Positions 4,222-53,567 of a stretch of 64,000 nucleotides of DNA are shown in pieces. The position numbers and the translations under genes are program-made. Each line of letters opens with the position of its first letter. Within the stretch, counting starts at the first letter, position 1. Source of the DNA: Planctomycetota bacterium (GTDB lineage: Bacteria > Planctomycetota > UBA8108 > UBA1146); NCBI GenBank assembly GCA_018694835.1, contig JABHOG010000047.1, positions 34,149 to 98,148 of the forward strand, in the 5' to 3' direction. The notes below the pieces were generated by a model. It made no database searches and was not told where the DNA came from. It saw only the letters and a list, made by a program, of their open reading frames with translations.

Positions 4222-7052
4222 GGCATGACGATTCCGGCAACGCAACCGGTCATCAGCGCTGCGACGGTACCACCGACCAATGCTCTCAATCCCAAAGAGG
4301 AGAGGCGCGGTCGCAAGGAAGGCTCGAGCGATGAGATTCCACCGATCTGGATCGCCACGCTGGCAAAGTTAGCGAATCCACAAAGGGCATAGGTGGTGAT
4401 GGCTCGAGAGCGCTCACTGAGGGTGTCGACCCCGGAGAGTTCGATAAAGGCCACGAACTCGTTGAGCACCGTCTTCATTCCGATCAGCGAAGCGACCGCT
4501 GGCACATCCTTGAAGTCGACCCCCAGCAACCAGGCAAAGGGATAGAAGATCCACCCGAAGACATCTTGTAGGTTGAAGTAGGGTGATTCCGCCAGCACGG
4601 CGTGATCTCCCTGGCTCACCATATTTACCAAGGAGAGTGCCCAGTAGGAGATGTGCTGGGTCAACCAGGCGAGTGATGCATTGGCCAGTGCCACGATGGC
4701 CACGAATGCGATCAACATCGCGATGACATTGAGTGCCAGGGTCAACCCTTCACTGGTTCCTCGACAGGCAGCATCGAGCAGATTGGAGTCGGAGCGGTGG
4801 ATTTCCAGTTTGGCCGCTGTGGGGTCACCTAGATCCTTCTTCTCGGGGACCATCAACTTGGCCGCCACCAAGGCCGCAGGCGCCGACATGAAACTGGCCG
4901 CCAGCAGGTGACCGGCGTCGATTCCGAGACTGACATAGGCGGCAAAAACACTCCCCGCCACGGTCGCCATGCCTCCAGTCATCAGTGCCATCACCTCGGA
5001 GTTAGTCATCGTTTTCAGATAAGGGCGGATCACCAGTGGTGCTTCAGTTTGCCCGGCGAATATGTTGGCTGCGGCAGCGAGAGATTCAGGACCGCTGGTC
5101 TTCATCGTCATTTGCATCAAACGAGCGATCAGCCACACGACGACCTGCAGCAAACCGATGTGATAAAAGATCGCCATCAATGCCGAGACAAAGATGATGG
5201 TTCCGAGCAAGACGATCCACAGCTGGAATCCAACACCGGTCGCCGACGCCAAGGTACCGAAGACCATGGCGGTCCCGACCTGGGAGAAGTCGAGGATCCC
5301 CTGGAAGATCTCCTTGGCACCAGAGGTGATGGAAGTGCCCCAATCAGTTCGCAGGATCACCAACGCCAGCAGCAGTTGCAGCCCCACCCCCCAGTACACC
5401 GTACGCCAGCGAACTTCAGCACGACGGGTCGAAATCGCCCAGCAGAGTGCGACCAGAACCAGCAGGCCCAGCAGGCTGCGGGCACGATCGAGCCAGTGAT
5501 CCCCCTCTCCCCCATCGGACGCTGATGAGATGTAAACCTCAGCTTGGATGGAAGCATAGATCCGATCGGCGGAGTCCGCCTGCTCCAGCGCCCGCTCGGT
5601 CGCTTCCAGCACCGACAATCCACCATCCTCCTTGGGAGCGGCAGCCAGCAGATCCCAACCATCCCCACCGCTGGCAAGGTAATCGTTGGTGGCGATGCGA
5701 AATTGCTGTTGATCGGTAATGGGAGCGCCCTGGAGAAGGATCTGGTCGACCTCGACCGGACCTCCGTCCGCCTCTGCCACCTGCACCCGAATTCCGTGGA
5801 AGTCGACCCCTCTTCCCTCGGTGGTGAGGGACTGAACGACCAGTTGCTTCAACTGCTTGCCGGTCAAGGTCACCACCGTCACGCGATTGCCAAAGGGCGA
5901 GATCTCGAAGAGATCGCGGTACAGCACTTCTCCAGAAGGCAAGTCGTCACGGATTCCACCATGATTGTGGAAAGAAGCAGAGACACCTGCCGCTTCCGCC
6001 ATCGAATCACAGATCCAGCGACCCAGTGGCGAGGAGACCGCTCCACTCTCCTTGTGCCCCCCACTGTGTAAAGCCACCGGGGATTCTCCCACCTTGCGAT
6101 TCATCTTCTCGCCGACCGTGGCATTCACCGCAGCGAGCAGAGCTCCCAATTTCTGATCGGTCGCAACGGAGAGGGCTTCGACAGCCACCACCGACGTGGA
6201 TACGGTGAAGGTCTGCCTGTGGCCCACGGACTCGCTCTTGCCCTTGCGTGTGAATTCGACGCGCCCGAGATGGCGAGTCTTGGCTCCCACCTGGGCCACC
6301 ACCGTGCCATGGACCGGTTCTATCCAGGGTGGATCAACCAGGGTATGGGAGTGCCCGCCGACGATGAGGTCGAGACCCTCGACTTCTCCGGCGAGCGCTC
6401 TTTCCAGTTTCACTCCGCTATGAGAGAGAACCACCATCAGATCGGCACCCTGTTGCCGGAGGCGATCTCTCGCTTTTCTCACCGCGTCAGCCAGCGGGGC
6501 TACCTGTAACTTTTTGCCCGCTACAGGAGCGATGATGTTGGGCGCGTCCGGTGTCAAGATTCCAATCAATCCGACGCGGAATCCACCGCGCTCGATGATG
6601 TGATCACGCAGTACCACCTGTTGTAGGCGTCCCGAAGACTCGGTCACATTCGATGCGATCACCGGAATGGTCGTGGCATTGATCAGATTCAGCAGGTTGT
6701 CTATTCCATAATCGAAATCGTGGTTGCCCAGGGTCATGGCATCGAACTGGAGGCACTCCATCGCTCGGATCATCTGAAGGCCGCCGTCGCTGGCGCCTTC
6801 TGGAGTTCCCTGGAACCAGTCGCCAGCATCGAGCAGCAACACATTCTCGTTACCCACCTCGTCGCGTACCGACGAGACCAATTGGCCCATCCCGGCCATT
6901 CCGCCACTGAGATTCTCACCACTTTTCCGAGGGAGTAACTGTCCATGCATGTCGTTGACGTGCAGTACCACCAGATGATCATCTGCCTGGACGAGAACCC
7001 CACACCAGAGACTGATCAGCACCAGCCAGCCTTGAATTGATCGCAAGATCAT
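4218..7052 (-). CDS. Fusion protein: periplasmic 5'-nucleotidase/UDP-sugar hydrolase (UshA-like) fused to a concentrative nucleoside transporter (NupC/CNT family)
   Basis: The N-terminus has a signal peptide (MILRSIQGWLVLISLWCGVLVQA after AGGTGG). Calcineurin-like phosphoesterase motifs HVNDMHG, GNHDFD and GGHSH follow, then the 5'-nucleotidase C-domain IATNDYLASGGDGW. The C-terminal ~400 aa are polytopic and align with E. coli NupC: RWRTVYWGVGLQLLLALVIL...FGTLAS vs [20 protein letters not shown]...FGSMND, GWIFYPFAWLLGV...NEFVAF vs GYIFYPIAWVMGV...NEFVAM, and an SAPAAL motif. It is one 945-codon frame with no internal stop. Confidence 0.85.
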   Translation of the reverse strand: MILRSIQGWLVLISLWCGVLVQADDHLVVLHVNDMHGQLLPRKSGENLSGGMAGMGQLVSSVRDEVGNENVLLLDAGDWFQGTPEGASDGGLQMIRAMECLQFDAMTLGNHDFDYGIDNLLNLINATTIPVIASNVTESSGRLQQVVLRDHIIERGGFRVGLIGILTPDAPNIIAPVAGKKLQVAPLADAVRKARDRLRQQGADLMVVLSHSGVKLERALAGEVEGLDLIVGGHSHTLVDPPWIEPVHGTVVAQVGAKTRHLGRVEFTRKGKSESVGHRQTFTVSTSVVAVEALSVATDQKLGALLAAVNATVGEKMNRKVGESPVALHSGGHKESGAVSSPLGRWICDSMAEAAGVSASFHNHGGIRDDLPSGEVLYRDLFEISPFGNRVTVVTLTGKQLKQLVVQSLTTEGRGVDFHGIRVQVAEADGGPVEVDQILLQGAPITDQQQFRIATNDYLASGGDGWDLLAAAPKEDGGLSVLEATERALEQADSADRIYASIQAEVYISSASDGGEGDHWLDRARSLLGLLVLVALCWAISTRRAEVRWRTVYWGVGLQLLLALVILRTDWGTSITSGAKEIFQGILDFSQVGTAMVFGTLASATGVGFQLWIVLLGTIIFVSALMAIFYHIGLLQVVVWLIARLMQMTMKTSGPESLAAAANIFAGQTEAPLVIRPYLKTMTNSEVMALMTGGMATVAGSVFAAYVSLGIDAGHLLAASFMSAPAALVAAKLMVPEKKDLGDPTAAKLEIHRSDSNLLDAACRGTSEGLTLALNVIAMLIAFVAIVALANASLAWLTQHISYWALSLVNMVSQGDHAVLAESPYFNLQDVFGWIFYPFAWLLGVDFKDVPAVASLIGMKTVLNEFVAFIELSGVDTLSERSRAITTYALCGFANFASVAIQIGGISSLEPSLRPRLSSLGLRALVGGTVAALMTGCVAGIVMP

Positions 7053-44509: not shown

Positions 44510-44738
44510 ATGAGCACCAGGTCCGTGCTAAAACTGCAGCGCCCTGGTTCCTTCCTATCGATGTACACCGCTCGTTACTCCTCCAGCCCCGAGATCTTTC
44601 AGGCAATCCTCGACCAGGGCGCTGACCCCCTCCCCAGGTGCAAGGGATGGCAAGAAGGCGATCGACCATGCCAAGAAGAACAAGATGCTGGTGGGAACAA
44701 AGGCCTACTGGAACCTCCACGACAAGTCGTTGGAGTGA
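44510..44738 (+). pseudogene. Frameshifted remnant of an ankyrin-repeat gene 3' end
   Basis: One frame gives GSFLSMYTARYSSSPEIFQAILDQGADP. After a C-run (gaccccctcccc) the +1 frame gives RDGKKAIDHAKKNKMLVGTKAYWNLHDKSLE*. Together these parallel the C-terminus of the intact ankyrin gene (GSTLLMYAAQNSWTPEVVQLLIDRGAD...EGKKAVQYAFQNLRIDGKWTFRNL*). Confidence 0.35.
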
Positions 44739-44836
44739 GCTGAGTTCCTTTCGCCTCCTCGTTGTCCTTCAGAGTGACTCCGAATAAAATCGATTCCAGA
44801 CCCTTAGGCCGAGGCACTTCACGAAAGGATCTCGCC

Positions 44837-45217
44837 ATGAAAATTACGCTACTGATGATGTCATTCCTGATCCTGGTCAGCCTGAGTGTCGGGTGCCAGG
44901 CCTTGAAGATGGACTATGGGGAGCCGGCGGCGCAGTTTCTGGAAAAGGATGTGGCTGCACTAGGACAGAAATATCTGGGCAAAAAAATCACCATCAAAGG
45001 GACCGTGATCGATGTCAGCAACCCGCAAGCCGGATGGATCCATCTTGGAAACGGGATCCGTTGCGATTTCAGCCGTTTACCCGCGATGGCACAGAGCAAG
45101 AAGCCCGGTGACATCTGTTTTATCGACGGCATTCTAAAAGAATGTGAGGAAGGGAATATCCTGCTCGAATCGGCAATGCTGCGGGATCCCACCGCGCCCT
45201 TCTCACCGGAGCGATAG
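44837..45217 (+). CDS. Small hypothetical lipoprotein (126 aa)
   Basis: MKITLLMMSFLILVSLSVGC (lipobox). RBS AAAGGA 8 nt upstream. Confidence 0.55.
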   Translation: MKITLLMMSFLILVSLSVGCQALKMDYGEPAAQFLEKDVAALGQKYLGKKITIKGTVIDVSNPQAGWIHLGNGIRCDFSRLPAMAQSKKPGDICFIDGILKECEEGNILLESAMLRDPTAPFSPER

Positions 45218-45232
45218 AACTGCAGACGCGAC

Positions 45233-45316
45233 TCAGGCGGTCGCGGCCAGTGCGGGGACTTGCCCGACCAGTTGGTTCCACTCCGTCTCATCGAGACCGC
45301 TCGCGATCCACTGCAT
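45233..45316 (-). pseudogene. 28-codon remnant of a hemerythrin-like gene 3' end
   Basis: Encodes MQWIASGLDETEWNQLVGQVPALAATA*. Over 81 bp it is about 80% identical to the 3' end of the intact hemerythrin-like gene at 46700-46780 (SQWIASGLGESEWNQLVGSVPALATTA*). Homology ends exactly at the cagtgg junction. Confidence 0.5.
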
Positions 45317-45415
45317 TCTCCCCCATCATTCAATGCAAAAAAAAGGTGGAGGCAATGTGCAGATCTTGGCGTAGGATCTGTTCAGAGAGGTTCGCCGTGC
45401 CTCTCGTGCCTTGAA

Positions 45416-46561
45416 ATGATGTCCATGTCTCGAAATCCGTTCTTCTTCCTGGCTCTCCTCATTCCAACATTTCTTCTGGGTCTCTGGGTCGGGAAACTCC
45501 CTCCTGTCGATGATCCATCCCCAGGGTCTCCTCCGCTGCTGTCTATTGAGGGTCAGGACTCCTCGCAGGCATCAGCCCTCATCACCGCGCCAATCTTGCC
45601 CCCTACACTCGATGCCCAATTGCATGCAGCATTGGGGCGGATGGGCACGTCCCCTGAGGATCTTCAGAAACTCCTCGATTCGGGTGCAGATGTTGATTCC
45701 GTAATAGATGGATGCCCTGTGCTGATCTCTGCGATCGACTCACAGAGTCCTGGAATTCTACTGTTCCTTCTGGAGCAGGGTGCCGAGCTTGAAGCCCGTG
45801 ATCAGTACGGGAATGCACCTCTGTCGATTGCAGCTTCCAGTTACCGGGAAGGTGCAACAGAAGAGGTCAGGATTCTCCTCGACGCAGGTGCTCAGATCGA
45901 AGCGCAAGATCACCTGGGAAATACCGCCCTGATGTCCGCGATGTTCCATTCCTCCGGCATCGAAACCGTCCACCTGTTGCTGGAGAAAGGCGCAAATCTC
46001 GAAGCGCGAAACAACAAAGGTTGGACACCATTGATGTGCGCAACGGCAAGTCTGCATCATTCTGATCTTACAAAATTGAAGTACCTCCTGGACAGTGGAG
46101 CCCAGATGGAAGTGGTCGGTCATGCGGGTGAAACGCCACTGATGCTGGCGGCTCAGGATGTGAATATCGAGGGGTTCGAATATCTGCTGGAAAAAGGCGC
46201 CGATCCTGAAGTTCGCTGCTCCAGAGGTTCCACACTCCTCATGTATGCGGCCCAAAATTCGTGGACGCCGGAAGTGGTTCAACTCCTCATAGACCGAGGA
46301 GCCGATCTTGACGCAACGAATGACCAGGGCTGGACTGCTCTCATGTTCGCAGCAAATACCGATTCACATGAATCAGGAACTGCGTGGCGCAATCAAATTA
46401 CTCCAGACATCATCGTACAGTTGCTGCTCGATGCGGAAGCCGACCCAAAAATCGTCAATAACGAGGGGAAAAAGGCGGTGCAATACGCATTTCAGAATCT
46501 ACGAATCGATGGCAAATGGACCTTCAGGAACTTGTACGATGTCTCAGATTGGAGTCCATAG
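45416..46561 (+). CDS. Ankyrin-repeat protein with N-terminal TM/signal segment
   Basis: At least 8 ankyrin repeats (G.TPLM.AA....E.V..LL..GA). N-terminal hydrophobic FFFLALLIPTFLLGLWV. ATG at 45416. Confidence 0.8.
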   Translation: MMSMSRNPFFFLALLIPTFLLGLWVGKLPPVDDPSPGSPPLLSIEGQDSSQASALITAPILPPTLDAQLHAALGRMGTSPEDLQKLLDSGADVDSVIDGCPVLISAIDSQSPGILLFLLEQGAELEARDQYGNAPLSIAASSYREGATEEVRILLDAGAQIEAQDHLGNTALMSAMFHSSGIETVHLLLEKGANLEARNNKGWTPLMCATASLHHSDLTKLKYLLDSGAQMEVVGHAGETPLMLAAQDVNIEGFEYLLEKGADPEVRCSRGSTLLMYAAQNSWTPEVVQLLIDRGADLDATNDQGWTALMFAANTDSHESGTAWRNQITPDIIVQLLLDAEADPKIVNNEGKKAVQYAFQNLRIDGKWTFRNLYDVSDWSP

Positions 46562-46626
46562 CCTCTCACTGAAAATACAGGTGTCGGCGGTTCGCTCCGC
46601 CCCTGGCCACATTTCAAAATACATCA

Positions 46627-46664
46627 CCCCGCCGGGTCTCAGGACCCTGCGGGGTTTTTCTTTT
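46627..46664. terminator. Bidirectional intrinsic terminator between the convergent ankyrin and hemerythrin genes
   Basis: CCCCGCCGGGTC-TCAG-GACCCTGCGGGG followed by TTTTTCTTTT on the plus strand. An A-rich tract on the other side serves the minus strand. Confidence 0.6.
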
Positions 46665-46699
46665 GATCGGTCGTGACCATCTCTGGAAGATGTGGTTGC

Positions 46700-47353
46700 C
46701 TAGGCGGTGGTGGCGAGGGCGGGCACTGACCCGACCAGTTGGTTCCACTCCGACTCCCCGAGACCGGAAGCGATCCACTGGCTGAGTATCGGCAGGAACT
46801 CCGGGGGAACTCCAGCGATCATGTTCTGGGCCACGCAGACACGATCCGCGGCATCGATGTGGGTGAACCACCACGGCATCATCTCCTGCATGAACTCGGG
46901 CGAGCAGAACTCCATGATCCTGCCGTCGAGCGCCCAGATCTCGGCCGCCTCGAAGTGCTTCATCATCGCCGGCATGATCTGCTGCTCCTCTCCATCGAGA
47001 TGAGTCAGCAGCAGTTGCTGGAGAGCAGCCAGGTCGCTCTGGATGTCGGTCGAGTTGCCGCCCGATAGAGTGGCCACAAGGGCTTCGATTTGACGGTGCT
47101 GGTCGACGCTGGCACCGGTCGAGCCGGGAGCGCGTTGCTCCAGAGGAGGGAAGAAGAGCGTGTCTTCCAGTTCCGAGTGCTTCTCGAGGATGCGAGCAAA
47201 GCGCGGGAAGTCGCTGGCGAACAGTTCGTCTCCGCCGGCGATGATCCGCGCCAGATCCCGGCGCAGGGCACGGTGGACATAGACGAAGTTATCCGCAACG
47301 GCAGCGTACTTTTCCGGGTCTACCATCGCTGGATCATCGGCAGCTTCGCTCAT
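46700..47353 (-). CDS. Hemerythrin-like (HHE cation-binding) domain protein
   Basis: His/Glu-rich helical pairs (HRALRRDL...HSELEDTLFFP...HLDGEE...MKHFEAAE) fit the hemerythrin four-helix metal site. ATG at 47353 after GAGGAG. Last gene of the heme oxygenase operon. Confidence 0.65.
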   Translation of the reverse strand: MSEAADDPAMVDPEKYAAVADNFVYVHRALRRDLARIIAGGDELFASDFPRFARILEKHSELEDTLFFPPLEQRAPGSTGASVDQHRQIEALVATLSGGNSTDIQSDLAALQQLLLTHLDGEEQQIMPAMMKHFEAAEIWALDGRIMEFCSPEFMQEMMPWWFTHIDAADRVCVAQNMIAGVPPEFLPILSQWIASGLGESEWNQLVGSVPALATTA

Positions 47354-47364
47354 GGTATTTCTCC

Positions 47365-48555
47365 TCAAAGACTCGACATCAGCGTCTTCTTGTCCCAGTA
47401 GGAACGAATGCTGGAGATCAATCCATCGGGATTGACGGTGAAGACAGAGACCCCCTCGAAGGTCAGTTCCTTGTCCTTGGTGCGCAACTTTGCCACACCG
47501 GTCCACCGGACAGCGGCCTCGTTCCCCGCCACGAACATGTCGTCCTCGGTCAGTGCCATCTTCTCGAAGAAGCCTGAGAGCGCCTTGAAGTAGTTGGTCG
47601 ACTTGTCGCGGACCAGCAACGGCGGTGTGCCGACCGGATCCCAGCTCAAGGCGTCTTCACTGAAGAGTTCGAGCAACTCGTCGACCTGCATGTTGCGCAG
47701 GCACGAGAAATATCCGCCGACGATCTTTGCGATCTGCTCCTTGCTCAACTTCTCGGGGGGCGCTGATTTCGGCGCTTCGGGAGGGTTGTCGCCGAGGTAC
47801 TGCTCCTTGAGAGCTTCAATCTCTGCATCGTCGGCGGGGGGAGCACAGTGTGAAGGCGCGAACTCCGCGACATACTCGCGAAGATGCTCGGGGAGTTGCT
47901 CGTAGGAGTCGATACGTGCGGCAGTGGTCTGCATGAAGCCGTCCCCCATGCCTGCGAAGGCCGGCAGCGTACCGTAGCGGTTCATCACCATCACATCGGC
48001 CACCCCGGGAGCGGTCGAGCCGTTGTAAGCCTCGTTGAACCAGACCTTGCCGATCGGGGTCTCGACCTCGCCGTAGAGGGTCCAGTAGAAGAAGGTGGTG
48101 TCGCCGGAGCGCTGTGCGAAGACCTTGTCGTTACTGACCTTTGCCAGACCGTAGTGGCCGTTCTGATGGGGTCCGCTGAGGCCCTCGGTATGGATCACGA
48201 TGTGGCGATCCTTCAGTTCGAACAGGGCCTCGATGTAGGGATACTCGCGGATGACGTGGCTACCATCTTCATTCTGCAAGATCTCGCCAGTGTCTGGATC
48301 ACGATAGATCACCAGGGTCCGACACACCGCCTTCGCCTGGTTCCCTTCCAACATCACCAGTCGGTTACTCACCAGCGCCTCGACGCCGGCGATGATTTCC
48401 CCACCCGGCTGGCGATAGAGTTTCCCGACGCTGTGGTAAAAAATCGGCTCGCCGTCACCTACATCGAAGGAGATGAACTCCTTGAAGGTCTCAGGGTCGA
48501 AGCCGTGGTCCGCATCATCCGCAGCGGTCTCGCCGCCCATCCTCACGATGTCCAT
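47365..48555 (-). CDS. Hypothetical two-domain protein: N-terminal unknown domain (about 270 aa) + C-terminal NTF2/SnoaL-like domain
   Basis: The C-terminal 120 aa (IVGGYFSCLRNMQVDELLELFSEDALSWDP...AGNEAAVRWTGVAKLRTKDKELTFEGVSVFTVNPDGLISSIRSYWD) have the SnoaL/ketosteroid-isomerase-like pattern. ATG at 48555 after AGGAGA. Confidence 0.6.
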   Translation of the reverse strand: MDIVRMGGETAADDADHGFDPETFKEFISFDVGDGEPIFYHSVGKLYRQPGGEIIAGVEALVSNRLVMLEGNQAKAVCRTLVIYRDPDTGEILQNEDGSHVIREYPYIEALFELKDRHIVIHTEGLSGPHQNGHYGLAKVSNDKVFAQRSGDTTFFYWTLYGEVETPIGKVWFNEAYNGSTAPGVADVMVMNRYGTLPAFAGMGDGFMQTTAARIDSYEQLPEHLREYVAEFAPSHCAPPADDAEIEALKEQYLGDNPPEAPKSAPPEKLSKEQIAKIVGGYFSCLRNMQVDELLELFSEDALSWDPVGTPPLLVRDKSTNYFKALSGFFEKMALTEDDMFVAGNEAAVRWTGVAKLRTKDKELTFEGVSVFTVNPDGLISSIRSYWDKKTLMSSL

Positions 48556-48578
48556 CTGGTATTCTCCTGGTCTGAAGC

Positions 48579-49370
48579 CTAGGCACCCTTTCGCCTATTA
48601 GAACGCATGGGGAGGAAGTTCGCGAGGGTGCGAATCCAGCTCCCCTCCAGCTCCTCGAACAGGCCCTGGTTGAGGGCGAATACCTGCTTGGCCTCGTCGA
48701 TGATTTGCTGGCTACGCTCATCCGTGAGCGGCAACTGGTTGAGGCGATTACGGTATTCATTCTTGAAGATCCTGGCCTTCTCGATCTCATCGAAATCGAA
48801 GAAGCGCAGGCCGTCACGACCCTCCAGGCCGAGTGAACGACGAGCGATCTTGGAGATCACCTGTCCTCCGGAGAGATCTCCGAGGTAACGCGTGTAACTG
48901 TGAGCCACCAGCAGTCCCGGATCGTTCTCTCCCAGCCAATGGATGCGGTCGATGTACTCCTTACGAGCAGAAGTCATACGCAACTGATTCTTCCAGTCCT
49001 CGCCGTAGAGGAACTCGAGGTCACGTTCGAGGACCGCCTTGCGGCTGAGTTCGGGGAAGTGGATCTGGCTGACCAGTGGATTGTCCTTGTGGCGCTCGAG
49101 TTCCTCCTCCAGCGCATCGTAGACCAGGTACATCCCGGCTTGCATGTTGGCGAAGCTCTCCATATCCATCACGCCCCTCAGGATCCCCTTGACGAAGTTG
49201 GTAGATTCGACGAAGCGGTGAGCCTGGGCAGTCTCGGTCCGGAGACGTTGAGCGAAGGTGATCTCTTCCTTGTCGCTGGCGACAGCATCGGCGCGCAAGT
49301 TCTTCGGCTGATCTGGCTTCTGGTCGGAAATCGTCTCTCGGTTGATCTCGTCTTGCTTGAGGTCTGTCAT
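48579..49370 (-). CDS. Heme oxygenase (HO-1/HmuO family)
   Basis: Canonical HO signature [29 protein letters not shown] (compare human HO-1 [27 protein letters not shown]). The proximal-helix region [12 protein letters not shown] contains the heme-ligand His. Confidence 0.85.
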   Translation of the reverse strand: [263 protein letters not shown]

Positions 49371-49398
49371 GAGTCACCACCCTTGCTGAAAAGTCGCG

Positions 49399-49465
49399 GT
49401 ATGCGGGCCCGCTTTCCCTGCGGGCTCTCGCCCGCTACCTGTCTATCCGTACCGCTGGGATCACC
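49399..49465 (-). promoter_or_regulatory. Structured leader element copy 1 (GC-rich hairpin GTAGCGGGC-GAGA-GCCCGCAGGG) between small ORF and heme oxygenase
   Basis: About 55 nt here match the second copy about 435 bp upstream at 21/26 positions in the core. Both end with an atccgY...tcaccgg block. Same orientation as the operon. Confidence 0.3.
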
Positions 49466-49680
49466 GGACCGAAAAACTTCAGTGGATCGTGAGATTCGAT
49501 CGAGAGATGCGCTCGTGATCGGCTTGAATCGCAGGTAACTGGCAGGAAACGGACATTTACCGGTATTTGCCAGCAGTGGAATCCACTGACCTCCACCCTC
49601 AATTGCCAGCGCCCTCGACTGCCGTGAAACCCGACAGGAGAGGGCGTGGAGGCCACTTTCGAGGAACCCAATCGGCGCGG

Positions 49681-49794
49681 CTAGCCACCGATTCCGAGGT
49701 ACACGGCCATGCTCGGCACTGCCAACCACAAGAGGCCCTTCACTGTGAAGAAGATCAGACCCCAGACTCCGAAGCGTTTGACTATTGCTGTCAT
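49681..49794 (-). CDS. Possible 37-aa small hydrophobic leader peptide (MTAIVKRFGVWGLIFFTVKGLLWLAVPSMAVYLGIGG)
   Basis: An ATG-to-TAG ORF not in the track because it is under 60 aa. One predicted TM helix. Flanked by the two conserved hairpin elements. RBS is weak (GGTGA). Confidence 0.3.
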   Translation of the reverse strand: MTAIVKRFGVWGLIFFTVKGLLWLAVPSMAVYLGIGG

Positions 49795-49834
49795 GTTTCA
49801 CCGACTTTCTGTCCACTTACACACCGGAGGCGAG

Positions 49835-49890
49835 TCCCGGCGACCCCGCAGGCTCATGCCCGCTACAGGGTGATCCGCTTCACCGGGGGG
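49835..49890 (-). promoter_or_regulatory. Structured leader element copy 2 (hairpin GTAGCGGGC-ATGA-GCCTGCGGGG) upstream of small ORF
   Basis: See copy 1. It is followed by a G8 run at 49884-49891. Confidence 0.3.
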
Positions 49891-50094
49891 GCCGGACTGA
49901 TTATTTTAAAAAGGATCTATGAGGGCTGCTAACAGCATCTGGAGCCCAAATACGGGCCCAACGACGTTCGGTTGGAGAGGGGCGAGGAGCCTACCCTCGG
50001 CAGATGGAAGTGGGCGCTGCCTGGGTACCGATGCGGTGGAAGGGGTAGATGCGGTGAAAGGGGTCGATGCGATCTGGCACGGCGGCCATCGCCC

Positions 50095-51519
50095 TTACAG
50101 GCAGGAATCTCCTGAATCTTCGCACTCGAGCGCATCATCGGTCGGATCCTGACCGCACGAGCCGACCGGCTCCGGCAGTGGCGGGGCCCCGCTGAAGAGA
50201 ACCGCCAGCAAGGTCACCGCATCGGAGATGTTGATCCCCCCATCATCGTTGGTGTCGGCGGCATCCAGACAACCCGGGGTGAACCCATTGTTGAAGAGGT
50301 AAGCGAGCAGGAACACGGCATCGGCGATGTTGGTGTTGCCATCGCCGTTGAGTTCGCCGCGCCTGAAGGTTCCGATCACAGTCAGATTCAGGTAGTAGGA
50401 GACGGTCGACTGGTCGTAGTTGCCGACAACGATGTCGAGACTTCCATCCTCATTCACATCCACCAGTTCCAGCCCAGAGAAGGCCACCGATCCGTCGAGG
50501 GTCCACACATCCAGGAATTCCAAGGCCCCGATACCCTGCAGGATGAGAAACCCGCCGGAGGCGAAGTTTCTGATCACCAGGTCGGTGATGCCATCGAGGT
50601 CGAGATCCCCACCGGCAACATGGCGCTGATTGTTTCCGGTGAAGATCGGGATCCCGGCCTGGGGAATCCCGGCATTCAGCGTGAAGATTCCAAGGTTACC
50701 CAGCCCCTCCTCGATCGACACGATCTCGGGAAGTCCGCCATCAAGGTCGATGGCCAGCGTCGACCAGTGAGACTCGGTCAGCCCGCCGATCTCGCGTTCC
50801 TCGGCGGAGAAGGTCCTGCTCCCCTGGTAGAGGCTGGTCGCAACCCCACCTCCGCTGCCGGCGTTGAAACCGCAGCACAGGTCGAGGTCGCCATCGCCAT
50901 CGAGATCGGCGATATCGAAGCTGAGTGGATATCCCGTCAGCAGGATCGACGACAGACCGTCAAACGCTGCCAGCGGATCATCGATTCCTGTCCCCCATGC
51001 CACCTGTAACCGCGAACCGAACAATTCGACGGCGATCACATCGAGGTGCCCATCATCGTCGATATCGGCGAGTTGTACCTGCGGATTTCCGCCTCCCCAG
51101 CCGGGCACCAACCTCGGCTGTTCGCTGAAGGTTCCGTCGCCGTTTCCTTCCATGTAGGCAAATTGGCCGCTCAGGAAATCGGTCACGACCGCATCGATGA
51201 CTCCATCCTCGTTGATGTCGCCGAAATCGATCGCCCAGGGCCAGTTGATGGAGATCGCGTTGAAGACGGGGGCATCGAAATTACCGCTGCCATCGCCGAG
51301 AGCGACGAACATCCCCGAAGTGAGTGCCGGCTCCCCCTGCAAGGCGATGATGTCGAGGTGGCCATCGGAATCGACGTCCGCCATCTTGACGGCATTGACC
51401 TTGTCCGCCATCACGACCGATACGGGCGGGGCAAATTCGATGGCAGCCTGCTGAGATTGGCCAGTTGCGGGCAATAGCGCCGCCGTCAGTAGGGCGAAAA
51501 GTGTGTATCGAACGCTCAT
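50095..51519 (-). CDS. Secreted FG-GAP/VCBS-repeat beta-propeller protein with C-terminal dockerin-like module
   Basis: Signal peptide MSVRYTLFALLTAALLPATG. Repeated DxDGDGxxD loops (DVDSDGHLDII, DIDDDGHLDVI, DLDGDGDLDL). C-terminal LNGDGNTNIADAVFLLAYLF and TNDDGGINISDAVTLLAVLF, then CGQDPTDDALEC. ATG after GGGAGG. Confidence 0.75.
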   Translation of the reverse strand: MSVRYTLFALLTAALLPATGQSQQAAIEFAPPVSVVMADKVNAVKMADVDSDGHLDIIALQGEPALTSGMFVALGDGSGNFDAPVFNAISINWPWAIDFGDINEDGVIDAVVTDFLSGQFAYMEGNGDGTFSEQPRLVPGWGGGNPQVQLADIDDDGHLDVIAVELFGSRLQVAWGTGIDDPLAAFDGLSSILLTGYPLSFDIADLDGDGDLDLCCGFNAGSGGGVATSLYQGSRTFSAEEREIGGLTESHWSTLAIDLDGGLPEIVSIEEGLGNLGIFTLNAGIPQAGIPIFTGNNQRHVAGGDLDLDGITDLVIRNFASGGFLILQGIGALEFLDVWTLDGSVAFSGLELVDVNEDGSLDIVVGNYDQSTVSYYLNLTVIGTFRRGELNGDGNTNIADAVFLLAYLFNNGFTPGCLDAADTNDDGGINISDAVTLLAVLFSGAPPLPEPVGSCGQDPTDDALECEDSGDSCL

Positions 51520-51934
51520 GAGGCCTCCCCCGCCATTGTCGCACGATTCATCGCTCAAGTCCTTCGTCATGCCCTACCCAGGAAGATAGGTGATCGAATG
51601 ACAATTGCCAACAGCACACAGGTAGGGAATCGTCAGAGCGGAATCCACAACTCATCGCTCCTTGCCAGGTCTGGCAGCACTCAGACCGTCGCTGGTCGCC
51701 ATTTCACCCAGCCGTAGTGGACCGATACTGACGGTGGCTACGGCCTGGTCATCTCTGCGACGGGCTCTCTTCCCACTCTTCCATCGTGAGCCAGCTTTCA
51801 CGCAGTTTGGCACCGTGGAAGAGACCGAGAATCGTCTGGTCCCTCATCGCATCCATCCGTCTCGACGCACGGATATCGCCGATGACGAGCAGCCGTTCGC
51901 CGCCCATCCGGCACGGGATGAAGGGCGGAGCCGA

Positions 51935-53446
51935 TTACGGGCAGATTCCGAAACTGACGCACTCGAGCGGATCCCCGGTCGGATCCACTCCGCAGCCTGG
52001 AAACGGCGCCGGCGGATTGAGCCCGGCGCTGAAGAGATAGGCGAGCAGGTAGATGACGTCTCCCACATCGATCGATCCGTCGTCGTTGACGTCGCTGGCG
52101 TCTTGACAGACCGGAGTGGCTCCCCCAACAAAGATGTAAGCGAGCAGGAACACCGCATCGGCCACCGAGATGGAATCGTCATCATTGCACTCGCCGCGAC
52201 TGAAACTCTGACAAACATCGAGGATCCCATCGACATTCTGATCGGTGGTGGCAGAAAGTTGGCAGCTATCTGGCACCCCGTCTCCGTCACAGTCACCGAT
52301 TCCGTTGTCGATATCACACTCATCCGGAATCCCATTCTGATTGCAGTCGGGCCCGCCGTACTGGTTGAGGTAGATCTGATCGGGAACGCTGAGATTCCCC
52401 ACCACCAGATCGAGGTCCTCGTCACCGTCGAGGTCTCCCAGGGCCACGGCTCGGCTGCTCGATGATCCAAGAAGCTGGCCACGGCCCGAAAAGGTACCAC
52501 TTCCATCGTTGGCGAAGATTCGATCGGGTTGATTCAGGTTTCCGCAGATGAGATCGAGGTCGTCATCGGCATCGATGTCGCCACTGGTCAGCGCGAGAGT
52601 GTTGGAGGAGCCGAGCCGCTGGCCACTGTCCAGAAAGGAACCGGTTCCATCGTTGAGATAGACCAGGTTCGGCTGACCGAAGTAATTGGCCACCGCCAGG
52701 TCGAGGTCGCCATCGGAGTCGAGGTCTGCCAGCACCACTTCGACGCTGGAGTTGCTTCCGAGTGCCTGAGCGGTATACGAGAAGTTGCCGTTACCATCAT
52801 TGAGATAGACTCGATTGGGTTGGTCGAGGTAATTCCCGACCACCAGATCGAGGTCGCCATCGGCATCGATGTCTCCCAGTGCCACACTGTAGCTGAAACT
52901 GAAACCCAGCGACTGGCCGGTGTCGGCGAAGAAGCCGTCCCCGCCGTTGCGATAGAGCTGATTGGGTTGGCCGTCGACATTGCCGACCACCATGTCGAGA
53001 TCGCCATCGGAGTCGAGATCCCCGAGAGCCACCGAGAAGGTCAGATCAGAGCCCTGCGCCTGACCGCTATCGGTGAAGAGGGCGTCTCCGTCATTGAAAT
53101 AGATCCGGTTGGGTTGGCCACTATTGCCGACCACCAGATCGAGGTCGCCGTCGGAGTCGAGATCGCCGAGTGTCACGGAACCGCTATCACCGCTGGCCAG
53201 TGCCTGGCCACTGTCGAGGAGGATTCCGTCCCCTACATTGAGGAAGATGAGATTGCCTTCACCCCAGTTCGCGATCACCAGATCGAGATCTCCATCCGCA
53301 TCGAGATCTCCCAGGGCCACCGACTGGGTATTGCCCGACGAGAGCGCCTGCCCACTCTCGATGAAGGTGCCACTGAGTGCACAGGGGTCAACTTGCCCCG
53401 AAAGGGTCGAGCCCATCGAGACCAAACAGAACAGCCAGAACCGCAT
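51935..53446 (-). CDS. Secreted FG-GAP repeat protein (7+ integrin-alpha-type repeats) with C-terminal dockerin-like module
   Basis: Signal peptide MRFWLFCLVSMGS. Very regular repeats (ALGDLDxDGDLDLVVGN...PNxxYxNDGxGxF). A Cys-rich Ca-binding-like segment (CNQNGIPDECDIDNGIGDCDGDGVPDSC). C-terminal CNDDDSISVADAVFLLAYIF and VNDDGSIDVGDVIYLLAYLF, then CGVDPTGDPLEC. Confidence 0.75.
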   Translation of the reverse strand: MRFWLFCLVSMGSTLSGQVDPCALSGTFIESGQALSSGNTQSVALGDLDADGDLDLVIANWGEGNLIFLNVGDGILLDSGQALASGDSGSVTLGDLDSDGDLDLVVGNSGQPNRIYFNDGDALFTDSGQAQGSDLTFSVALGDLDSDGDLDMVVGNVDGQPNQLYRNGGDGFFADTGQSLGFSFSYSVALGDIDADGDLDLVVGNYLDQPNRVYLNDGNGNFSYTAQALGSNSSVEVVLADLDSDGDLDLAVANYFGQPNLVYLNDGTGSFLDSGQRLGSSNTLALTSGDIDADDDLDLICGNLNQPDRIFANDGSGTFSGRGQLLGSSSSRAVALGDLDGDEDLDLVVGNLSVPDQIYLNQYGGPDCNQNGIPDECDIDNGIGDCDGDGVPDSCQLSATTDQNVDGILDVCQSFSRGECNDDDSISVADAVFLLAYIFVGGATPVCQDASDVNDDGSIDVGDVIYLLAYLFSAGLNPPAPFPGCGVDPTGDPLECVSFGICP

Positions 53447-53567
53447 CGCCGACACACCTCTTGTTTCAGAGTACGCGAGCACGCACTCGCTGAAATCGGG
53501 AACTCTTGAAGGAGATTCTCCACCGAATTATTCCGCAATCCCACTTCGGGGTCAGGGGATAAAGGTG

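Follow-up and report, generated by a model that had tools for sequence, protein, structure and literature searches.

What does a bacterial heme oxygenase (HO) work with when no bacteriophytochrome is encoded nearby, and what are the two similar noncoding elements that precede its operon? These questions are raised by a 64-kb stretch of Planctomycetota DNA (contig JABHOG010000047.1, here referred to as the window; all coordinates are those of the window), whose minus strand carries a hydrophobic 37-codon micro-open reading frame (micro-ORF) followed by a three-gene operon that encodes an HO, a 396-amino-acid (aa) protein combining a β-barrel with an NTF2-like domain (the barrel/NTF2 protein), and a hemerythrin-like protein. 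Comparison with related loci suggests that these genes form a conserved, co-regulated heme-degradation module, which would consist of two adjacent transcription units with a dedicated shared promoter and would include a tetrapyrrole-handling partner of HO, a reading that we regard as probable, though by no means assured.

The original prediction, made from the DNA sequence alone, described a one-strand operon with spacers of 23 and 11 nt, a canonical HO, a second protein with a SnoaL/NTF2-like C terminus, and a hemerythrin-like third protein, with no bacteriophytochrome in the vicinity, and all of this was borne out. The 23-nt spacer separates the HO gene from that of the 396-aa protein, and the 11-nt spacer, which contains the Shine-Dalgarno sequence GGAGA, precedes the gene for the hemerythrin-like protein. 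The HO scores 246.7 bits against the PF01126 profile (cutoff, 23) over profile positions 2 to 204 of 204, and its best relative of known structure is HO-1 from Synechocystis (PDB entry 1we1; E value of 1.2e-61). Its TAQAHRFVE segment matches the proximal-His segment in the alignment to 1we1 and human HO-2, and the Gly-rich distal helix, YLGDLSGGQ, is identical in the alignment to 1we1. Because both elements are retained, the protein is expected to be a normal biliverdin-forming enzyme; HOs cleave heme to biliverdin, CO, and Fe2+. The hemerythrin-like protein (46.1 bits against PF01814; cutoff, 25.3) consists of an HHE domain (residues ∼20 to 130), in which the di-iron ligands H27, H59/E63, H86/E90, and H118/E122 are invariant in 7 homologs from Planctomycetota and Myxococcota, and of a C-terminal domain of ∼90 residues (residues ∼127 to 215) that matched no family, is conserved even more strongly than the HHE domain, and includes an invariant Cys150. 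A scan against NCBIfam provided no informative names. The large window ORFs that were scanned included no phytochrome, and neither did the Pfam-annotated flanks of the related loci.

Homologs were sought in 5.8 billion proteins, in 241 million metagenome records, and in the genomes of 185,579 species, each represented by a single genome. The relatives of the 396-aa protein comprise only about 30 clusters in the protein set; the metagenome records yielded 25 loci and the species genomes yielded 28, the latter all in metagenome-assembled genomes (MAGs) labeled as Planctomycetota (Planctomycetia) or Myxococcota (Myxococcales). Among the roughly 50 loci (designated L001 and so on) from metagenomes and from MAGs of Planctomycetota and Myxococcota, nearly all that are long enough to tell keep the gene order HO, barrel/NTF2 protein, hemerythrin-like protein. 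The module is conserved and rare, and it was seen only in two uncultured lineages of marine bacteria, Planctomycetota and Myxococcota. The barrel/NTF2 protein is the best conserved of the trio, above HO itself: the identities to the window for the barrel/NTF2, HO, and hemerythrin-like proteins are, respectively, 91, 70, and 91% in L037, 81, 70, and 72% in L017, and 68, 55, and 54% in the myxococcal locus L004. Two variant arrangements were detected. In L005 and L006, a short-chain dehydrogenase/reductase (SDR) and a weakly methyltransferase-like protein are encoded where the hemerythrin-like protein would be. In L007 and L008, the HO gene is followed by genes for a stand-alone N-terminal barrel domain of 247 aa, for a protein of the canonical DUF1838 type (PF08894; E value of 1.3e-40), and for an unassigned 190-aa protein, so that the barrel domain stays downstream of HO even when it stands alone. 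The identities of the HO and the 396-aa protein to those of the window are out of step (92 and 96% in L010, 85 and 89% in L041, and 70 and 91% in L037), a mismatch that suggests recombination inside the operon.

Alignment of the upstream regions of all loci identified an invariant core, GTCCGG-N14-C[T/G]GAT-N6-GTA, in front of both the micro-ORF and the HO gene; the spacer between the first two blocks is always 14 nt long and is variable in sequence. In the window, these two copies (modules A and B, respectively) are separated by the micro-ORF within the 724-nt intergenic region that lies upstream of HO and follows a gene for an FG-GAP/dockerin protein (stop at position 50095). The bipartite motif was searched for with a regular expression and with a position weight matrix (PWM) built from 38 distinct copies. 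The regular expression produced 59 matches in 556 kb of related loci, all located 40 to 100 nt upstream of the start of the micro-ORF or HO, with the exception of a single site, found in L039 and L040, that precedes another small ORF. The PWM added a conserved GTA 7 to 9 nt past the second block and an AT-rich tract 5 to 9 nt ahead of the first. Both sites in the window reach the same PWM score of 54, and nothing else in the 64 kb scores above 0. The motif and the micro-ORF co-occur perfectly, both being present in 13 loci and neither in 17. In L045 to L048, copy A (in a GTCCGA variant) starts only 13 to 20 nt past the hairpin-plus-T-run terminator of the upstream gene, which leaves no room for another promoter. 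Modules A and B most likely represent duplicate copies of one dedicated promoter region of the alternative-sigma type. Recognition by a sigma factor would fit, because the two blocks are not complementary to each other, their spacing is invariant, and the GTA lies at the distance expected of a start site; that the factor would be of an alternative or extracytoplasmic-function (ECF)-like type is suggested by the architecture of the motif and by its tiny apparent regulon, which includes the micro-ORF, HO, and one other small ORF.

That other ORF encodes a Lys-rich protein of 46 aa (beginning with MTEDKRKLSDKQIEGISGGGKGQSGK) with a weak homolog in L036 and none in the window; the module in front of it (L039/L040, site 4631, minus strand) has the form GTCCGG-N14-CGGAT with a GCGGGC...GCCCGT hairpin, and the ORF may be another member of the regulon. 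A 183-aa ORF that follows this third site in L040 was discarded as an apparent antisense artifact of FG-GAP genes. A Fur-box-like reading of the AT-rich tract was also rejected, as the tract is not conserved in the relatives.

The 37-codon ORF for a hydrophobic helix was correctly predicted and is conserved in the relatives, where, apart from L041 and L042, it precedes HO in all planctomycete loci that belong to clades whose 396-aa protein shows at least ∼79% identity. It had been described as a leader micro-ORF, with an attenuation or riboregulatory structure as one option for the paired elements, and this reading is not supported. The peptide has a core of LVK[RK]FGVxGLIFFTVKGLLWxxVPxxxVYxG and occurs in over 20 loci at 64 to 100% identity. 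When 34 codons from ten loci were aligned, 15, 8, and 32 columns proved variable at the first, second, and third codon positions, respectively, and the codon differences comprised 548 synonymous and 347 nonsynonymous ones; judging from these substitution patterns, the micro-ORF is a protein-coding gene under purifying selection and not a leader peptide. The micro-ORF has its own upstream module and is followed by a hairpin of the terminator type and then by the second promoter-like module, an order at odds with that of a leader-peptide attenuator. Across the relatives, 86.8% of the cells in this 16-bp hairpin are paired, and two-sided changes were found in 8 of its 16 pairs, versus 2.5 in shuffled alignments (none of 500 was as high) and 0 to 3 in slid controls. 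The window has the GC-rich, covariation-supported hairpin of an intrinsic terminator and lacks the U-tract, the stem being followed by CTGGCAATTGAGGG; a classic hairpin with a T-run occupies the equivalent site in L017, L044, and L045. Copy B is always located downstream of the hairpin that trails the micro-ORF. This order (terminator, module, gene, terminator-type hairpin, module, operon) argues for two transcription units with a shared promoter type. A sigma-54 reading of the TGGCAATTGAGGG block was rejected by eye, the GG/GC spacing being unfit.

The micro-protein family is tiny: a search with a 40-aa ortholog as the query retrieved 16 clusters. The gene for one distant member of 57 aa (P0273, in L069) precedes that of a divergent HO by 18 nt, in an unrelated setting that lacks the other two genes, which independently ties the micro-peptide to HO. 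The two loci without the micro-ORF deserve a separate mention. L041 (positions 4392 to 6941, minus strand) and L042 carry a close relative of the operon that also lacks the GTCCGG motif and is transcribed divergently from a gene for an 849-aa protein with two cyclic nucleotide-binding domains, a BFD-like [2Fe-2S] domain, FNR-type FAD/NAD domains, and a C-terminal membrane segment that is apparent by eye. This protein is a plausible candidate for an electron donor to HO or a regulator.

The C-terminal domain of the 396-aa protein matches SnoaL_2 (PF12680) at residues 281 to 382 (E value of 2.9e-15) and has the α+β cone fold of the SnoaL/NTF2-like superfamily. The first ∼270 residues had been left unassigned in the original prediction, which allowed for membership in some well-characterized unrelated family. 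This proved not to be so: the N-terminal ∼255 residues (the N-domain) can now be assigned to the DUF1838 superfamily, although the protein scores below the Pfam DUF1838 (PF08894) threshold (19.6 versus 25 bits). An exhaustive HMMER search of 1.84 billion representative sequences with the N-domain profile retrieved only 112 proteins. When 10 of the more distant matches were scanned against Pfam, 8 passed the DUF1838 threshold, 1 was a sub-threshold match, and 1 (P0032) had no match; orthologs P0011 and P0013 carry precomputed PF08894 matches. The N-domain aligns with the DUF1838-like proteins from end to end at 25 to 31% identity, with G33, G35, R65, R79, Y177, and P240 in common. Of the Arg residues that are invariant in the HO-linked clade, R65, R79, R193, and R226 recur across the wider DUF1838-like set, and the HO-linked clade alone has invariant H41, C78, and H130 residues and an invariant six-residue insertion (TEGLSGPHxNGHYG). 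Profile-profile comparison with hhalign gave a modest similarity to canonical DUF1838 (E value of 2e-4; probability of 46%). The N-domain is best described, on the strength of these profile searches and alignments, as a divergent branch of the DUF1838 superfamily and not as a member of Pfam DUF1838, since the searches link it to that family, yet the Pfam and hhalign scores are modest.

Searches of the PDB with the N-domain and DUF1838 profiles found no relative, so neither group has a solved structure. The predicted structure of the full 396-aa protein has a mean predicted local distance difference test (pLDDT) score of 86.5; for the 270 N-terminal residues alone, the pLDDT is 89.3 and the predicted template modeling score is 0.87. 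This model contains ten long strands followed by helices and displays the 10-stranded β-barrel that characterizes the nitrobindin fold. Its fold neighbors, all at 4 to 11% identity, include nitrobindin (3wjb; value of 13.8), the heme domain of THAP4 (3ia8; 13.4), Rv0813 (2fwv; 13.3), the bilin lyases CpeT (5hi8; 12.2), CpeS (4tq2; 11.0), and CpcT (4o4o; 10.3), the spirocyclase OlmO (7sfn; 11.8), and the bilirubin-binding UnaG (4i3b; 8.8). Canonical DUF1838 proteins are found in a different setting in L063 to L066 (gammaproteobacterial/Chromatiales MAGs), where they are encoded as tandem pairs, several with Tat-like RRxAL signal peptides, followed by a Fer2/Fer2_2 [2Fe-2S] protein and cytochrome c; this set looks like an undescribed periplasmic redox complex.

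From the gene identities, their conservation and linkage, the architecture of the motif, the selection on the micro-protein, and the covariation of the hairpin, we infer the following scheme of promoter function, regulation, ligand binding, and biochemistry. The first unit would comprise the gene for the 37-aa membrane protein and end at the terminator-type hairpin, and the second would comprise the genes for HO, the barrel/NTF2 fusion, and the di-iron hemerythrin-like protein. Each unit would have its own copy of the module, consisting of the AT-rich tract, GTCCGG, 14 nt, C[T/G]GAT, 6 nt, GTA, and a 5′ untranslated region (5′ UTR), and a single alternative (ECF-like) sigma factor or activator could recognize both, so that the micro-protein and the HO operon would be switched on together. 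HO would then degrade heme to its usual products; the barrel/NTF2 protein would serve as a tetrapyrrole partner that either delivers heme to HO or, slightly likelier, takes over or processes biliverdin; the hemerythrin-like protein may handle the released Fe2+ or else supply or sense O2; and the micro-protein may anchor HO at the membrane or act as its partner there.

Several observations weigh against this scheme. No gene for a sigma factor or regulator was found near the operon among the window ORFs scanned. Module A is immediately preceded by a weak sigma-70-like site (TTAGCA-18-TAAAAT, 49932..49903) that, if used, would cause this module to be transcribed as RNA; the number of such sites equals the chance expectation. 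The 5′ UTRs of copies A and B are 82% identical in L001 and 80% identical in L028, which is beyond the sole need of a promoter and points to an additional shared constraint or gene conversion. The distant homologs of the micro-protein are mostly not linked to HO, such linkage being seen in one of four contexts. As for the barrel, outer-membrane barrels and enzymes such as OlmO are likewise found among its fold neighbors, and at the identities listed above tetrapyrrole binding is a guess at the level of the fold. The shortfall of the 396-aa protein relative to the Pfam DUF1838 threshold counts in the same direction, as does the fact that canonical DUF1838 genes elsewhere are not HO-linked, the gammaproteobacterial ones being located beside Fer2 and cytochrome c genes.

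Table 1. Features of the HO locus in window coordinates
Feature	Position	Strand	Description
Module A	49795..49906	-	Promoter-like region and 5′ UTR of the micro-ORF; PWM score of 54; same module before the micro-ORF in all relatives with that ORF; AT-rich tract, GTCCGG (49897-49892), 14-nt spacer, CGGAT (49877-49873), GTA (49866-49864), GC hairpin GCGGGC-ATGA-GCCTGC (49863-49848), second GC-rich stem, Shine-Dalgarno GGTGA
Micro-ORF	49681..49794	-	37 codons, hydrophobic; conserved 37-aa single-pass membrane protein, MTAIVKRFGVWGLIFFTVKGLLWLAVPSMAVYLGIGG
16-bp hairpin downstream of the micro-ORF	49610..49646	-	Terminator type; covariation
Conserved block GGCAATTGAGGG	49596..49607	-	Directly after the micro-ORF hairpin; CAATT invariant in nine lineages; at odds with sigma-54 spacing
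Module B	49371..49478	-	Promoter-like region and 5′ UTR of HO; same bipartite motif; GTCCGG (49469-49464), 14-nt spacer, CGGAT (49449-49445), GTA (49438-49436), hairpin GCGGGC-GAGA-GCCCGC (49435-49420), GCGGGCCCGC, Shine-Dalgarno GGTGGTGA
HO gene	48579..49370	-	263 aa; canonical HO-1-family heme oxygenase; PF01126, E value of 2.5e-73
Gene for the 396-aa protein	47365..48555	-	Barrel and NTF2 fusion
N-terminal barrel domain of the 396-aa protein	47791..48555	-	Residues 1 to ∼255; predicted soluble 10-stranded β-barrel with C-terminal helices; divergent DUF1838 superfamily
SnoaL/NTF2-like C-terminal domain of the 396-aa protein	47365..47742	-	Residues ∼272 to 396
Gene for the hemerythrin-like di-iron protein	46700..47353	-	217 aa; PF01814, E value of 8.5e-12
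Terminator-like hairpins between the converging hemerythrin and ankyrin genes	46626..46658	both	Consensus scan only

The two elements of the original prediction, each with a GC hairpin, correspond to the downstream parts of the two modules. As predicted, the 64 kb contain exactly two occurrences of the motif GTAGCGGGC-N4-GCCYGCRGGG (49866..49844 and 49438..49416), whereas shuffled sequences would lead one to expect 0.08, and the surroundings of the two copies, over about 60 to 110 nt, are identical in 72% of the aligned columns. The hairpin lies on the minus strand, as had been stated, but the accompanying “atccgY...tcaccgg” block had been given in its plus-strand form; on the coding strand it reads CCGGTGA...RCGGAT and is located upstream of the hairpin. 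The expectation that the elements would be conserved in front of orthologous operons held for the elements but not for the hairpin itself, which is limited to the closest clade. The 5′ UTRs come in a long type of about 76 nt with GC stems (window, L001, L012, L037, and L054) and a short type of about 41 nt without them (L017, L028, L036, and L044). Copies A and B within one genome are normally of the same type, apart from the mosaic L058 (sites 6657 and 7061), in which A is long and B is short. The A-B identity within a genome ranges from 60 to 82% and exceeds that between orthologous copies in L001 and L028, which suggests concerted evolution of the two copies in these genomes. By comparison across the relatives, the long 5′ UTR is lineage specific, and the GC hairpin, as its first stem, is not the conserved functional core.

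Two other explanations of the repeated elements have to be weighed against a shared alternative-sigma promoter. The elements could be cis-acting RNAs (a riboswitch, an attenuator, or a 5′ UTR that binds a protein or a small RNA) that control translation or read-through, with the micro-ORF as a leader peptide; we consider this very doubtful. Each long-type copy does contain one or two GC stems, the GCGGGC / GCCCGC / GCGGGC / CCCGC segments of copy B could pair alternatively, and copies A and B resemble each other within a genome as if one trans-acting factor bound both. The first stem of the long type is 94% paired in 13 distinct copies, and its three variable pairs have all changed to G·U, a change that is tolerated in the sense RNA and not in the opposite strand; together with the A-B similarity, this hints at gene conversion or at a shared trans-acting factor acting on the 5′ UTR. 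However, all three changes are one-sided and the 13 copies contain no compensatory (two-sided) change, the predicted folding energies are unremarkable (z-scores of −1.2 and −1.6), and Rfam, searched at gathering and permissive thresholds, has no match in the leader (best E values of 2.4 to 8.7, with 10 to 18 bits versus thresholds of 40 to 50). In addition, loci with short 5′ UTRs dispense with the hairpin while keeping the bipartite motif, the micro-ORF, and the operon, and a peptide under purifying selection with a terminator of its own is the opposite of a leader peptide. A modest post-transcriptional contribution has a low probability and would not be the chief conserved feature. Of the two possibilities originally raised for the paired elements, repeated operator sites and attenuation or riboregulation, the latter is unsupported and the former, as DNA-level sites, comes nearer to the evidence, although we read these sites as promoters. 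If they were operators for a repressor or activator, responsive for instance to iron, heme, or O2, the real promoter would be an overlapping housekeeping one. Two short blocks at a fixed spacing would suit a dimeric DNA-binding protein as well as a sigma factor, the sigma-70-like site is at hand just upstream of module A, and HO genes in other bacteria are classically controlled by metal-dependent repressors, such as Fur and DtxR. Still, GTCCGG and C[T/G]GAT are neither direct nor inverted repeats of each other, no consistent sigma-70-like hexamers accompany module B or the modules of other lineages, the room left by the upstream terminator in L045 to L048 is minimal, and the conserved GTA lies where a transcription start would be expected, which makes the operator interpretation unlikely.

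The role of the barrel/NTF2 protein is less clear-cut. That it handles a tetrapyrrole, either as a heme donor or as a biliverdin acceptor, is in our estimate an evenly balanced proposition; binding is suggested by the fold neighbors, the linkage to HO, the clade-specific His and Cys residues, and the clade-invariant Arg residues. The two roles are about equally well founded, with a slight lean to the product, and the originally proposed handling of biliverdin by the NTF2-like protein is plausible. The lean to the product comes from the replacement of the hemerythrin-like gene by SDR and methyltransferase-like genes in L005 and L006 and from the NTF2 domain, which is typical of enzymes; the similarity to nitrobindin and the Tat-signal/Fer2/cytochrome c context of the canonical DUF1838 pairs lean toward heme. 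The heme side can be elaborated into a cytoplasmic heme chaperone or store, analogous to PhuS, HemS, or ChuS, that feeds HO as part of a heme utilization operon for iron starvation, which seems to us possible, though on the unlikely side. H41 and H130, whose invariance is limited to the HO-linked clade, could act as axial ligands, the company and signal peptides of the canonical DUF1838 proteins suggest cofactor-bearing redox proteins, and the downstream di-iron protein would suit iron handling. Yet no heme transporter or TonB receptor was found in the window or the related loci, the gene swap in L005 and L006 better fits small-molecule processing, and NTF2/SnoaL domains are typical of enzymes and ligand binders, not of heme chaperones. 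An intriguing, if unlikely, possibility on the product side is that the barrel/NTF2 protein represents an unrecognized class of HO partners that bind a linear tetrapyrrole, either for its enzymatic conversion or as a new chromoprotein. In that case, the clade-invariant Cys78, close to His41 and His130, might form a covalent bond with the bilin, the NTF2 domain would act as an isomerase or hydratase, and the hemerythrin-like and 37-aa proteins would be its partners for O2/iron and membrane docking, respectively. A nitrosative or oxidative stress system, with the barrel as a peroxynitrite isomerase or NO binder, the di-iron protein in RIC-like repair, and HO clearing damaged heme, would draw on the fold similarity to nitrobindin and the Rv2717c peroxynitrite isomerase and on a weak match of the hemerythrin-like protein to the NCBIfam RIC iron-sulfur repair family (E value of 0.014). 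It appears highly improbable: the RIC match, at 15 bits, is far under the cutoff of 205, sequence similarity to the nitrobindins is absent (4 to 7% identity), and the neighborhood contains no NO-related genes.

The surroundings of the operon are those of an ordinary chromosome and include an rRNA operon, recA, purD, and genes for an RseP-like protease and for a phosphonate-binding protein beside a hybrid kinase. The two genes upstream (50095-51570 and 51935-53482, both on the minus strand) encode FG-GAP/VCBS repeat proteins, the nearer of which has a C-terminal dockerin-like module according to Pfam. FG-GAP/VCBS-like genes also flank the operon in L001 to L003, and their products are probably surface proteins unrelated to the module. 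An 18-nt tandem duplication (GATGCGGTGGAAGGGGTA / GATGCGGTGAAAGGGGTC) is found in the intergenic region upstream of module A, at 50030-50065. At the other end of the operon, a 79-nt direct repeat with 84% identity (45235-45313 and 46702-46780), the latter copy coinciding with the final 26 codons of the hemerythrin gene, brackets a cassette (45314-46701) with an ankyrin-repeat gene (about 45422..46561, plus strand). The cassette is missing in L037, where the hemerythrin 3′ end is directly joined to a homolog of window positions 45234..44560, and a different filler of ∼620 nt occupies its place in L010 and L011. The 3′ end of the hemerythrin gene thus looks like an insertion hot spot, with the insert restoring the 3′ end of the gene.

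Taken one by one, the HO and the NTF2 and hemerythrin domains are unremarkable representatives of their families; the set of partners and the promoter motif appear to be new. As in bphO-bphP operons, a canonical enzyme of the HO-1 family is encoded together with a protein expected to use its product, but the barrel/NTF2 protein, the hemerythrin-like protein, and the 37-aa membrane protein replace the PAS-GAF-PHY phytochrome, which is missing from the scanned ORFs of the window and the annotated flanks of its relatives. The PhuS-HemO system of Pseudomonas likewise links HO to a soluble accessory protein and probably shares the dedicated control, often by an ECF sigma factor or a metal-dependent regulator; here, the accessory fold is a β-barrel plus NTF2, and uptake genes are not linked. 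The likeness to nitrobindin and THAP4 (3wjb, 3ia8, and 2fr2) is confined to the 10-stranded barrel of the predicted structure, whereas the present domain has no Pfam match to them, exceeds them in size at about 255 aa, has helices at both its N and C termini, and is fused to NTF2. The phycobiliprotein lyases CpeT, CpcT, and CpeS are 9 to 11% identical to it, with no match to the Pfam lyase families; to our knowledge, the host organisms are not known to possess phycobiliproteins. The N-domain profile retrieves proteins that pass the Pfam DUF1838 threshold, and a canonical DUF1838 gene trails the stand-alone N-domain in L007, but the N-domain differs from canonical DUF1838 in having the clade-specific insertion and His and Cys residues and in lacking a Tat-type signal and Fer2 or cytochrome c neighbors. 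Promoters of the ECF type share with modules A and B the two short blocks at a fixed spacing, the G/C-containing upstream block, the tiny apparent regulon, and the duplication before co-regulated units; they differ in that no sigma/anti-sigma pair is adjacent to the operon. We know of no ECF consensus that matches GTCCGG-N14-C[T/G]GAT. A search of the literature did not find this gene combination, the barrel/NTF2 fusion, an HO-linked micro-protein, or the promoter motif, nor any paper that joins heme oxygenase, hemerythrin, and SnoaL or heme oxygenase and nitrobindin clusters; DUF1838 was found only in two gene cluster tables, with no function described. Papers in which heme oxygenase, hemerythrin, and operon all appear are unrelated, as far as the listed titles and abstracts show.

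The accessory proteins of HO determine the fate of heme iron and of biliverdin, and with it their use in signaling, pigments, or detoxification. The module described here provides a genomic context clue to DUF1838, a family with no solved structure, and a well-supported genetic tie between a 37-aa membrane protein and HO, while its compact and highly specific motif could help in finding the cognate regulator and regulon in marine Planctomycetota. As the organisms are uncultured, the value of these observations lies in directly testable biochemical hypotheses rather than in a demonstrated mechanism. If true, bilin binding by the barrel/NTF2 protein would be the first function assigned to the DUF1838 superfamily and would extend bilin metabolism by a new branch, located in marine bacteria that are not phototrophic.

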